Assembly: GCA_037135035.1 (NCBI GenBank)
Contig: JBAXLB010000002.1
Span: forward strand, 4,993 to 68,992
DNA: 64,000 nucleotides
Direction of reading: 5' to 3'
Source: Candidatus Adlerbacteria bacterium
GTDB taxonomy: Bacteria > Patescibacteriota > Minisyncoccia > Phycocordibacterales > SBAW01
Below, one piece after another: positions 55,425-57,946 of this stretch. The notes below the pieces were generated by a model that saw only the letters and a program-made list of their open reading frames with translations, was not told the origin of the DNA and did not search any database. Made by a program: the position numbers and the translations under genes. The stretch's first letter is position 1. Every line of letters begins with the position of its first letter.

Positions 55425-56093
55425 ATGGCTGACAACGCGACAAAAGCACAGGCAACACAGGAATTTGTACCCATACAAGAGGTACGTGGCGGTATTATTA
55501 TTTTAAAAGACGGCTCTATGCGGTCGATGCTTATGGCGTCGTCTATTAACCTGGCCCTAAAGTCGCAAGACGAGCAGGCGGCGATAATTGGGCAATTTCA
55601 AAACTTCCTTAACTCACTCGAGTTTAGTGCACAATTTTTTATCCAGTCGCGAGACTTAGACATCCGCCCCTACATTGGGTTGTTGGAAGCTCGTTACACC
55701 GCCGAGCTAGACGATTTGATGAAAATACAAATAAAAGAATACATTGCCTTCATTAAAGACTTTACCGCACGCTCCAACATCATGACAAAAAACTTTTTTA
55801 TCGTGGTGCCGTACGACCCCGCACTTGTTGCCCGCGGCAGCGGTGTTACAGGAATTGTAAATGCGCTGATACCTTCAAAAAGTACCGGCGGGGGAGGAGT
55901 ACTTACCGACGAGCAGTTTGAAGAGTACCGCGTACAGCTTGAGCAACGCGTATCGGTTATAGAACAAGGTTTAATACGCACCGGTGTGCGTGTGGTGGGC
56001 TTGGGGACAGAAGAAATTATCGAACTGTTTTACAAACTCTTTAACCCGGGCGAACTTGAAAAACCGCTGCAAGTAACACAAGTTGCAAAGTGA
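55425..56093 (+). CDS. VirB4-family ATPase, N-terminal CagE/TrbE/VirB domain fragment
   Basis: 222 aa. FVPIQEVRGGIIILKDGSMRSMLMASSINLALKSQDEQ matches the VirB4 N-terminal consensus. The start is 2 nt after the PrgI-like stop. Confidence 0.55.
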   Translation: MADNATKAQATQEFVPIQEVRGGIIILKDGSMRSMLMASSINLALKSQDEQAAIIGQFQNFLNSLEFSAQFFIQSRDLDIRPYIGLLEARYTAELDDLMKIQIKEYIAFIKDFTARSNIMTKNFFIVVPYDPALVARGSGVTGIVNALIPSKSTGGGGVLTDEQFEEYRVQLEQRVSVIEQGLIRTGVRVVGLGTEEIIELFYKLFNPGELEKPLQVTQVAK

Positions 56094-56122
56094 TACTATA
56101 AAGAAGCTTCGTACACCTTTTT

Positions 56123-57946
56123 ATGGCACTCCTTGATTTTCTAAAACCAAAAACTGACGACGGTGGGCGCACCTCGTCTTTGGCGCCTATTATGCCCGAG
56201 CAGATTTACAAGCAAGGAGTGCTTGAACTGCAGGATGTTATCGCACCTTCAGCTTTAAAGATTACCCCGCGCGAAATTAACTTGGGCGACAAAATTGCAC
56301 GTACGTTTTTTGTCATGTCGTACCCGCGCACACTAACAGACTCGTGGTTTGCACCCATAATTAACCTCGACCGCGTGCTGGACATCTCAATTTTTGTGCA
56401 CCCTATAGACTCGGCAGAGATTTTGAAAAAGTTCCAAAAAAAGGTAGCCGAGGTACAGAGCCAAATTATGTCGCGGGAAGAAAAAGGCTTGGTGCGTGAC
56501 CCAATTTTGGACACTGCCTACCGCGACTTGGAGGATCTGCGCGACCAACTGCAACAAGCAGAGGAAAAGATATTTGACGTTGGCGTATACATTACCGTGT
56601 ACGGCAAAACGATTGAAGAACTCGACAAAACCGAGTCGGAAATAAAGTCTATGCTCGAGTCGCGCTTAATTTATGTAAAACCAGCACTCTTCCAACAAGA
56701 ACAAGGGTTTAAAAGCACACTCCCTATTGGCCGGGACGAGTTGCAGGTAAATTCAAAACTTAATTCGTCGCCACTCTCTTCTATTTTCCCGTTTGTGTCG
56801 TTTGACCTTACCTCTGACAAGGGTATTTTGTACGGGGTTAACCGCCACAACGCGTCCCTTGTGCTGTTTGACCGATTTTCGTTGGAGAACTATAACTCCG
56901 TTATTTTTGCAAAGTCAGGTTCGGGTAAGAGCTACGCTACCAAACTCGAGATTTTGCGCACACTTATGTTCGACACCGAAGTTATCGTCATAGACCCCGA
57001 GCGTGAATACGAATTTTTGAGCCAGACAGTGGGTGGGCGGTACTTTAACATCTCCCTTTCGTCCGAACACCACATTAACCCGTTTGACCTGCCAATACCG
57101 CGCGAAGACGAAAACCCGGCAGACATTTTGCGTTCCAACATTGTTGCGTTGGTCGGCCTCTTCCGCATTATGTTGGGAGGCCTTTCGCCAGAGGAAGACG
57201 CAATAATCGACAAAGCAATTACTGAAACATACGCGCTTAAAGACATCACTATAGACTCCAACTTTGCGGAAATTGAGCCACCACTCCTTTCCGACTTCGA
57301 AACAGTGCTTGCCGGTATGGACGGAAGCGAGTCATTGGGGCAACGCCTTTCAAAATATACCAAGGGTACGTGGTCGGGTTTTATCAACCAGCCGACTAAC
57401 GTCGACATCAACAAAAAATTTGTTGTGTTTTCTGTCCGCGACATGGAAGACGACCTAAAACCCGTCGCTATGTACCTTATTACCCACTATATATGGAACA
57501 CGGTACGTAAAAACCTTAAAAAACGCTTGCTCGTGATAGACGAGGCGTGGTGGATGATGAAGTCCGAAGACACCGCCTCGTTCTTGTACAGCATGGCAAA
57601 GCGCGGCCGTAAATATTACTTGGGGTTGGCAACCATTACCCAAGACGTGGACGACTTTTTAAAGTCGCCGTACGGGCTGCCTATGATTACCAACTCGTCC
57701 ATACAGTTGCTTTTGAAGCAGTCGCCAACAACGATAGACAACCTGCAAAAAACCTTTAACTTGTCCGACGAAGAAAAGTACTTGTTGCTCGAGTCAGACG
57801 TGGGGGAGGGAATATTTTTTGCTGGCCTGAAACACGTGGCTATAAAAGTTATCGCCTCATATACCGAAGACCAGATAATTACGTCCGACCCGTCGCAAGT
57901 GCTGGCAATTCGCAAACAAAAAGCCGACGCTGCTGCACAAGCATAG
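56123..57946 (+). CDS. VirB4-family ATPase (PrgJ/TcpF/ConE-like), main body
   Basis: 607 aa. GDKIARTFFVMSYPRTLTDSWFAPIINL block, Walker A AKSGSGKS, Walker B LVIDEAWWM. It is in a different frame from the preceding fragment. Confidence 0.85.
   Translation: MALLDFLKPKTDDGGRTSSLAPIMPEQIYKQGVLELQDVIAPSALKITPREINLGDKIARTFFVMSYPRTLTDSWFAPIINLDRVLDISIFVHPIDSAEILKKFQKKVAEVQSQIMSREEKGLVRDPILDTAYRDLEDLRDQLQQAEEKIFDVGVYITVYGKTIEELDKTESEIKSMLESRLIYVKPALFQQEQGFKSTLPIGRDELQVNSKLNSSPLSSIFPFVSFDLTSDKGILYGVNRHNASLVLFDRFSLENYNSVIFAKSGSGKSYATKLEILRTLMFDTEVIVIDPEREYEFLSQTVGGRYFNISLSSEHHINPFDLPIPREDENPADILRSNIVALVGLFRIMLGGLSPEEDAIIDKAITETYALKDITIDSNFAEIEPPLLSDFETVLAGMDGSESLGQRLSKYTKGTWSGFINQPTNVDINKKFVVFSVRDMEDDLKPVAMYLITHYIWNTVRKNLKKRLLVIDEAWWMMKSEDTASFLYSMAKRGRKYYLGLATITQDVDDFLKSPYGLPMITNSSIQLLLKQSPTTIDNLQKTFNLSDEEKYLLLESDVGEGIFFAGLKHVAIKVIASYTEDQIITSDPSQVLAIRKQKADAAAQA

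Follow-up and report, generated by a model that had tools for sequence, protein, structure and literature searches.

In the stretch of DNA analysed here (64,000 nucleotides, hereafter the window), a VirB4-type protein of a T4SS is encoded by two consecutive ORFs in different frames, a short upstream ORF and a long downstream ORF that contains the ATPase. This arrangement raises the question whether the two ORFs are functional genes or the remains of a single one. An earlier note on this DNA left three options: a genuine split gene yielding two polypeptides, an inactivated pseudogene, or a pair of compensating assembly errors. The junction, the encoded proteins, their relatives and the gene neighbourhood have been analysed in silico, and the options are weighed below at the points where the evidence bears on them.

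Organization of the two ORFs and their junction

The features of the locus are listed in Table 1.

Table 1. Features of the T4SS locus in the window (positions numbered from the first nucleotide of the window)
Feature	Positions	Strand	Size	Remarks
Predicted polytopic membrane protein, upstream in the cluster	51820..54345	+	841 aa	translation rich in hydrophobic segments
PrgI-family (VirB3-like) small membrane protein	54992..55423	+	143 aa	Pfam PF12666 PrgI, E 8e-10, above cutoff
TrsD-like / 'TraC-like' protein gene	55425..56093	+	222 aa	coordinate mod 3 = 0; free-standing homologue of the VirB4 N-terminal part
Spacer between the two genes	56094..56122	.	29 nt	intergenic; carries TAA 56099-56101 of the ATPase frame
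VirB4-type T4SS ATPase gene	56123..57946	+	607 aa	coordinate mod 3 = 2; rest of the N-terminal domain and C-terminal P-loop ATPase domain
Walker A, AKSGSGKSY	56909..56935	+		ATPase residues 263-271
Walker B, LLVIDEAWW	57527..57553	+		ATPase residues 469-477
T4SS pilin-like protein, same cluster	59697..60425	+	242 aa	Pfam PF18895 T4SS_pilin, E 1.6e-10; NCBIfam Mbov_0395 pilin-like, E 1.3e-4, below cutoff
jag, yidC, rnpA, rpmH	61640..63349	-		chromosomal location near the origin

Inspection of the sequence places the stop codon of the first ORF at TGA 56091-56093, and the frame of the second is closed upstream by TAA 56099-56101 as well as by TGA 56057 and TAA 56042. Because the last stop codon of the ATPase frame is situated 3' of the stop codon of the first ORF, a single indel cannot fuse the two. 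The coordinates, stop codons, different frames and lack of a single-indel rescue described in the earlier note are thereby all borne out. The earliest start codon past TAA 56099 is ATG 56123.

The spacer contains no SD-like motif, and a scan of positions 54300..58100 placed no promoter-like or terminator-like site within it, the counts being at chance level. The SD-less start had been pointed out as remarkable; however, SD-like motifs are found upstream of only about 5 of the 45 genes in the window, and since SD-less starts are the rule in this genome, the absence of the motif at ATG 56123 is uninformative. Tight translational coupling is less obvious in the window than in the closest relatives, as the spacer of 29 nt exceeds theirs (1-12 nt).

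Characteristics of the encoded proteins

The 607-aa protein is recognized by the NCBIfam model of the CD1110-family VirB4 (NF045971) with 392.6 bits, above the curated cutoff of 325 bits, at positions 184-733 of a profile of 1-752, and both Walker motifs are present. The profile is not contained whole in one polypeptide: the remaining match, at positions 2-117, belongs to the separate 222-aa ORF (E 1e-3, far under the cutoff). The Pfam matches of the 607-aa protein are P-loop_TraG, AAA_10 and DUF87, and its PDB sequence matches are 4ag5 (VirB4 C-terminal domain) and TrwK 286-735. The YPR block (SYPRTLTDSW) corresponds to ATPase residues 66-75; thus the YPR…W block and the two Walker motifs are all located in this ORF, as had been proposed. 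Homologues of the ATPase with 90-96% identity have a length of about 600-615 aa.

The 222-aa protein had been described as carrying a canonical CagE/TrbE block. The homology to the VirB4 N-terminus on which this description relied is real but remote, and the label itself could not be confirmed with Pfam-A: the protein has no match in the local copy of Pfam-A, either at E<=0.01 or even at E<=10, and its NCBIfam scores are far below the cutoffs. A match to PF26593 'TraC-like' is given for the identical protein and for all of the best 120 homologues, the label coming from precomputed annotation only. The NCBIfam model of TrsD/TraD (NF041427) aligns residues 8-128 with profile positions 12-142 of 201 (36.3 bits, E 4.8e-9), far below its curated cutoff of 200 bits, and the VirB4_plasma model matches at positions 98-233 (E 1.8e-8), likewise far under the cutoff. 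By sequence, the 222-aa protein is a remote relative of staphylococcal TrsD that falls outside NF041427 by model score, while sharing with that family a stand-alone form of about 200 aa and a position directly upstream of the ATPase in an MPF_FATA-like cluster.

Since the PDB sequence search with the 222-aa protein gave noise only (staphylocoagulase, E>0.1), a fold search was used, in which TrwK/VirB4 was the sole strong match to the predicted fold. Type III secretion chaperones formed a second tier of matches, weak and covering less than half of the protein. In a naturally fused relative of 797 aa (P0323), the 222-aa protein maps to residues 3-214 (36% identity, E 1e-45) and the ATPase to residues 226-791, in colinear order. 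The homology to VirB4 N-termini is thus based on the NCBIfam matches, the predicted fold and the fused relative, with similarity of sequence and fold colinear with the ATPase part.

Conservation of the split among relatives

More than 7800 homologues of the 222-aa protein have been found, the best 120 of which are all 219-235 aa long; the best 120 homologues of the ATPase are all about 586-643 aa long. Fusion to an ATPase is rare: of the 150 best cluster representatives of the 222-aa protein (50% identity), one shows it and 149 do not. A total of 80 GTDB species loci were located via the ATPase: 77 possess the trsD-like gene directly upstream on the same strand, two are cut by contig ends, and in one (L060) both the trsD-like gene and the PrgI gene lie on the other strand. 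All 77 same-strand loci have a stop codon between the two genes. The spacers have a median length of 5 nt and a range of 1-497 nt, the frame offsets 0, 1 and 2 occur 18, 33 and 26 times, and the trsD-like gene ends with TAA in 52 loci, TAG in 22 and TGA in 3; spacer sequence, length and frame are all unconserved. The start of the ATPase, M-[AG]-L-[LF]-D-F, is conserved, its methionine preceding the YPR block by about 65 residues. The genes tolerate separation: in four genomes an unrelated gene, for a 23S_rRNA_IVP four-helix-bundle protein, is inserted between the two.

The split had been called uncommon and a matter that bears on function; in these data it is the ancestral norm. The earlier note would have given up its view of a split VirB4 if the 222-aa ORF were a distinct conserved family and VirB4 homologues normally began at the YPR-containing block. 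This is essentially what was found: the ORF belongs to such a family (TrsD-like, annotated as PF26593 'TraC-like'), and the ATPases of the clade begin a short distance ahead of the block.

The first alternative is a decaying T4SS in which frameshift or nonsense mutations have interrupted a once-continuous virB4, as might be suggested by two ORFs in different frames, stop codons in both frames, and colinearity with the single VirB4 of the fused relative. However, every one of the same-strand species loci shares the break, the ORFs there are intact and conserved in length, stand-alone homologues are counted in thousands, and the ATPase scores above a curated VirB4 cutoff with its Walker motifs intact. 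The dN values amount to 0.12-0.19 for the trsD-like gene and 0.07-0.11 for the ATPase gene, and dN/dS is 0.02-0.18 in the few computable pairs; because pairwise dS is mostly saturated, selection is argued from the low dN together with these few pairs. Both genes are under strong purifying selection, with dN/dS far below 1 where it can be computed and no sign of relaxed constraint. A pseudogene is therefore excluded for practical purposes.

The second alternative, two compensating sequencing or assembly errors that create an apparent split, draws on the metagenomic origin of the window and on the indel errors common in some assemblies. Against it, the junction with 1069 nt around it is base-identical in two other ENA metagenome assemblies (ERZ27300054 and ERZ27300101), the exact 222-aa protein is recorded in several sources, and the split recurs in 77 independent genomes. 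An artefact has next to no probability, and the genuine two-polypeptide arrangement is the only one of the three original options to survive, stop and restart being present in each of the same-strand relatives.

A further reading is programmed recoding, in which frameshifting or stop read-through would yield a fused full-length VirB4 besides or instead of the two proteins. It is favoured by adjacent ORFs colinear with a fused homologue and by the very short spacers of many relatives, but there is no conserved frame relation, stop codon, spacer length or slippery sequence, and fusion in the window would have to cross stop codons in both frames. The genomes with a whole gene between the two ORFs, or with the trsD-like gene on the other strand, and the conserved initiator methionine and following residues of the ATPase argue in the same direction; recoding is highly improbable.

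Gene neighbourhood

The PrgI gene is the first of a conserved PrgI - TrsD-like - VirB4 triad, and precedes the trsD-like gene also in locus L083 and in the Clostridium botulinum plasmid pCBG. The 841-aa protein has no Pfam or NCBIfam match and is a candidate VirB6-like channel subunit only on the grounds of its size, hydrophobicity and position; in a Pontibacillus plasmid, a large membrane protein is encoded at the corresponding place ahead of the triad. The neighbouring T4SS genes are intact, which also speaks against a decaying system. The best homologues carry the names Candidatus Adlerbacteria or Paceibacterota, and a T4SS near the origin has been reported for Paceibacteria (PMC12102498).

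Proposed function of the two-gene VirB4

The two ORFs are very probably ordinary, intact, adjacent genes of a chromosomal T4SS of a Candidatus Adlerbacteria-like member of the Patescibacteria. The fission of VirB4 is old, common to some Firmicutes plasmid systems and fixed across the clade. The first gene encodes a TrsD-like protein, which corresponds to the N-terminal portion of VirB4 made as a separate polypeptide, and the second the VirB4 ATPase proper. Both are probably co-transcribed with the upstream prgI/virB3-like gene, and each is presumably translated from its own SD-less start codon, like most genes of the genome. The small protein and the ATPase may then join non-covalently into a complete VirB4, which would dock on PrgI/VirB3 at the membrane and power the T4SS.

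Alternatively, the 222-aa protein may have diverged to an independent role, e.g. as a chaperone-like or adaptor T4SS subunit, and may no longer be simply a piece of VirB4. Such a role would fit the long disordered tails, with abundant Pro, Gln and Thr, of 34 of the 150 cluster representatives. It would also fit the evolution of the protein, faster than that of the ATPase (median identity to the window 59% vs 79%), and the fact that most T4SS clusters of the phylum lie near neither a coupling protein nor a relaxase (PMC12102498). However, VirB4 itself is the best structural match and the only strong one, the chaperone-like matches remain weak and partial, the position just upstream of virB4 is nearly universal, and a natural fusion exists; full independence is accordingly unlikely. 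A milder form, in which the fission was not simply neutral and the freed module is a semi-independent T4SS subunit, either chaperone- or adaptor-like or a membrane dock for VirB4 with tunable stoichiometry, within a system that has neither coupling protein nor relaxase close by, has a small but somewhat better chance of being right. In the literature TrsD is stated to have no assigned function, which leaves room for this form. The type III chaperone folds, the frequent disordered C-terminal tails in relatives and the faster evolution are weak hints in that direction.

The result bears mainly on annotation. In Patescibacteria, as in some Firmicutes plasmids, an apparent frameshift in virB4 should be taken neither for a pseudogene nor for an assembly error, and gives no ground for scoring the T4SS as defective. 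The system to which the two-gene form is native has been reported to be essential for the epibiotic growth of a cultivated relative (PMC10633639, PMC12102498). The role of the free-standing TrsD-like module is a question already recognized in the literature, to which the window adds no special evidence.

Comparison with known systems

The two-gene arrangement of TrsD and ATPase is already known and published (PMC12102498). In that account (Quinonero-Coronel et al. 2025), TrsD figures as remotely homologous to the N-terminus of VirB4 and, beside virB4, as the most abundant T4SS component in Patescibacteria, with 2,272 homologues; for S. epibionticum ML1 it is given as essential. The statement of homology is credited to this source only, since 'TrsD' is absent from the main text of Guglielmini et al. 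2014 (PMC4027160). Wang et al. 2023 (PMC10633639) described the T4SS locus that is essential in Southlakia epibionticum.

Compared to the fused VirB4 proteins (the CD1110 family, TrwK of R388 with PDB 7o41/8rtb, and P0323), the two products of the window together cover the whole protein colinearly. The difference is that the first ~220 residues form a separate polypeptide in the window, the break being located within the N-terminal domain, in a linker of low conservation.

TrsD/TrsE of the staphylococcal plasmids pGO1/pSK41 and TraD/TraE of pIP501, of the MPF_FATA class, resemble the pair in the window, a VirB4-N homologue of ~200 aa being encoded just upstream of a shortened VirB4-type ATPase. 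In contrast to the window, whose system is chromosomal and probably not conjugative (PMC12102498), these systems serve plasmid conjugation and include a relaxase as well as a coupling protein. The megaplasmids of Firmicutes (Pontibacillus NZ_CP062975 and C. botulinum pCBG NZ_CP006909) encode PrgI, a 'TraC family' or hypothetical protein and an ATPase, with the gene order and fission point of the window. Their N-like protein has 257-274 aa and is 21-29% identical to the 222-aa protein, and their ATPase has ~620 aa. However, the N-like and ATPase genes of the megaplasmids overlap by 11 nt in a plasmid context, whereas the genes of the window are spaced and chromosomal.

The closest likeness is to the T4SS with TrsD and VirB4 of the Patescibacteria, the same phylum, in which a TrsD-like gene is likewise located directly upstream of virB4. 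The companions of that system, PrgI/VirB3 and a VirB2-like protein or T4SS pilin, and its chromosomal site by rpmH-rnpA-yidC-jag, near the origin, all recur in the window (PMC12102498). Apart from the somewhat longer spacer, nothing substantive differs between the two.

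Organization of the TrsD-like and virB4 genes

The TrsD-like protein (N) and the VirB4-type ATPase (C) are encoded in different frames, with stop codons closing both, and the coordinates and stops of the two genes bear out this description from the earlier note. In the frame of C, stops stand at 56042, 56057 and 56099-56101 (TAA); since this TAA lies downstream of the N stop, no single indel fuses the two genes. The spacer is 29 nt long, and the first start codon past the TAA is the ATG at 56123. C holds the SYPR...W block (residues 66-75), Walker A (263-271) and Walker B (469-477).

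Coordinates of the features discussed (positions in the window, or in the named relative's locus)
Feature	Position	Strand	Remark
LysM + Peptidase_M23 protein	44132..45280	-	about 3.5 kb upstream of the T4SS cluster
pcrA/uvrD	45555..47504		between LysM + Peptidase_M23 gene and cluster
ksgA	47347..48294		between LysM + Peptidase_M23 gene and cluster
PrgI-family, VirB3-like protein	54992..55423	+	immediately upstream of N
N	55425..56093	+	222 aa, stop TGA 56091-56093
C	56123..57946	+	607 aa, frame differs from that of N
T4SS pilin	59697..60425	+	in cluster with PrgI, TrsD-like gene and VirB4
jag-like R3H protein	61640..62143	-	
yidC	62172..62888	-	
rnpA	62892..63206	-	
rpmH	63215..63349	-	
23S_rRNA_IVP gene	L022:2595-2996		E 1e-19 to 1e-38 over the four loci
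23S_rRNA_IVP gene	L032:2619-2990		
23S_rRNA_IVP gene	L038:2580-2963		
23S_rRNA_IVP gene	L044:2565-2963		

The junction in related genomes

Through the ATPase, 80 loci were retrieved, one per GTDB species. N lies directly upstream of the ATPase on the same strand in 77 of them, and in all 77 a stop codon (TAA 52, TAG 22, TGA 3) ends N before the ATPase start. Spacer length varies from 1 to 497 nt (median 5 nt), and all three frame offsets are seen (0 in 18 loci, 1 in 33 and 2 in 26). The C-terminal residues of N, ...NPGE.EKP..., and the first residues of the ATPase, M-[AG]-L-[LF]-D-F..., are conserved across loci; the intervening DNA is not. Such features are those of two cistrons with an intergenic region, and not of a frameshift site, accidental or programmed. 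Of the remaining three loci, two run into contig ends; the other, L060, has N and PrgI on the strand opposite to virB4 and divergent from it. The gene order there (L060:1858-2923, minus strand, DALYDA010000004) is N then PrgI, for which rearrangement and misassembly are both possible.

In four loci a gene for a 123-133-aa four-helix-bundle protein, 23S_rRNA_IVP (PF05635), sits between N and the ATPase. Four different Patescibacteria species carry this insertion precisely at the junction of the TrsD-like gene with virB4; the shared site suggests either that it is targeted repeatedly or that the gene is part of a mobile cassette.

A Candidatus Adlerbacteria MAG already lists the exact 222-aa sequence of N among its hypothetical proteins. 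N has more than 7800 homologues; the top 120, from Adlerbacteria, Paceibacterota or other Patescibacteria, are all 219-235 aa long with 75-84% identity, and the top 120 homologues of C measure 586-643 aa with 89-96% identity. No protein of about 830 aa occurs among either top 120. An exhaustive HMMER search with N over 1.84 billion cluster representatives gave 2061 matches at E<=0.001, and 149 of the best 150 lack an ATPase fusion. The split, which the earlier note had called uncommon, is thus the usual state, both among these representatives and in the 77 same-strand loci. In 34 of the best 150 (P0274-P0390) the N homologue owes its greater length solely to a disordered, low-complexity C-terminal extension of 60-230 residues, in which Pro, Gln, Thr and Ala abound; N of the window has no such tail.

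One natural fusion was found, the 797-aa protein P0323. Its residues 3-214 align to N (36% identity, E 1e-45) and its residues 226-791 to C residues 32-596 (57% identity), so the two ORFs of the window are colinear with one VirB4. Compared with this fused protein, the break point is a short, poorly conserved linker.

Selection and expression

Comparisons among the closest genomes give a dN of 0.12-0.19 for N and of 0.07-0.11 for C, while synonymous sites are saturated; for those with a computable dS, dN/dS is 0.02-0.18 (N) and 0.03-0.05 (C). Contigs of two other ENA assemblies, ERZ27300054 and ERZ27300101, carry the N gene, the spacer and the first 400 nt past the N stop (where C begins) without a single base difference. 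A pseudogene and compensating assembly errors, both considered earlier, are therefore excluded by the selection figures and the identical junction in two other assemblies. [quoted passage not shown]

The lack of a Shine-Dalgarno (SD) sequence before 56123 was rightly observed, but such a restart is unremarkable: only about 5 of 45 confident window genes have a GGAG- or GAGG-type motif no more than 25 nt from their start, so its absence is the norm. No promoter-like or terminator-like site was detected in the spacer, and counts in the surrounding region are at chance. The simplest reading would be co-transcription with separate initiation of N and C. Of 45 window start codons, 11 have a -10-like hexamer (TAnA[ACT]T) that begins 8-22 nt before them, against about 2 expected; together with the scarce SD motifs, this hints that many genes of this genome may have very short leaders or leaderless mRNAs.

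Relation of the two products to VirB4

N had been described as the canonical VirB4 N-terminal (CagE/TrbE) block. Homology to VirB4 N-termini holds, but N matches nothing in Pfam-A, including CagE_TrbE_VirB, even at E<=10. In NCBIfam it matches TrsD/TraD (E 4.8e-9), VirB4_plasma (positions 98-233, E 1.8e-8) and CD1110 (profile positions 2-117, E 1e-3), all far under the cutoffs; the relation is remote. C exceeds the CD1110 family cutoff of 325 bits with a score of 392.6 (profile positions 184-733) and is, by this profile match, a clear VirB4.

An AlphaFold2 model of N, built from 62 diverse homologues (mean pLDDT 82.6, pTM 0.70), was compared with the PDB by Foldseek. TrwK/VirB4 chains of the R388 T4SS fill the top 14 places (probability 1.00, query-based TM about 0.5, alignments of about 200-230 columns), with only noise below them. 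C residues 114-554 align by sequence to TrwK 286-735; by extrapolation, N would cover roughly TrwK residues 1-170, where the VirB4 N-terminal domain begins.

Two conserved genes, each separately terminated and initiated, together make up one VirB4. The observation of the earlier note is confirmed and its interpretation partly supported: the two-polypeptide arrangement is genuine, but it is not uncommon and does not signal decay. Going by the R388 structures and the fused relative, N would bind C in trans and complete the VirB4 N-terminal domain; according to the summary in PMC12102498, the R388 form of this domain contacts membrane-bound VirB3. Weak hints point to N acting independently, as a chaperone-like or adaptor-like factor. 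If N and C do bind, the complex would then energise a T4SS, probably not a conjugative one.

The T4SS cluster and comparison with known systems

The cluster is directly followed by jag-yidC-rnpA-rpmH, genes usually located near the origin, and so has the position that PMC12102498 reports for Paceibacteria; dnaA was not seen in the 650 nt of the window past rpmH. Seven ORFs in or beside the cluster (48808..54957, 57981..59700, 60426..61631), of 297, 718, 841, 196, 233, 359 and 401 aa, have no Pfam or NCBIfam match. They are candidates for T4SS subunits specific to the lineage, and two of the products, of 841 and 233 aa, resemble polytopic membrane proteins. The LysM + Peptidase_M23 protein, whose gene is not adjacent, could be the VirB1-like cell-wall hydrolase discussed for Patescibacteria T4SSs.

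A tblastn search of plasmids with N returned 56 records, mostly Firmicutes megaplasmids. The N-like match is a separate gene in Pontibacillus NZ_CP062975 (274 aa) and in Clostridium botulinum pCBG (257 aa, annotated "TraC family protein", after a PrgI gene). In both, a 620-aa ATPase follows, annotated "VirB4-like, CD1110 family" and "ATP-binding protein", respectively, with an 11-nt overlap in contrast to the spacer of the window. The two-gene VirB4 arrangement is already known. TrsD outnumbers every other T4SS component recovered from Patescibacteria, with 2,272 homologues, 1,664 of them associated with virB4 (Quinonero-Coronel et al. 2025, PMC12102498); among MPF_FATA prototypes it occurs in the pGO1 subclass only, and in Southlakia epibionticum ML1 the copy adjoining virB4 is listed as essential (PMC12102498). 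The S. epibionticum T4SS is essential for epibiotic growth, is Gram-positive-like and has pilins (Wang et al. 2023, PMC10633639); neither a coupling protein nor a relaxase is recognisable in it (PMC10633639). With PrgI, a TrsD-like gene, VirB4, a T4SS pilin and an origin-proximal site in common (PMC12102498, PMC10633639), the window fits the published description of Patescibacteria T4SSs.
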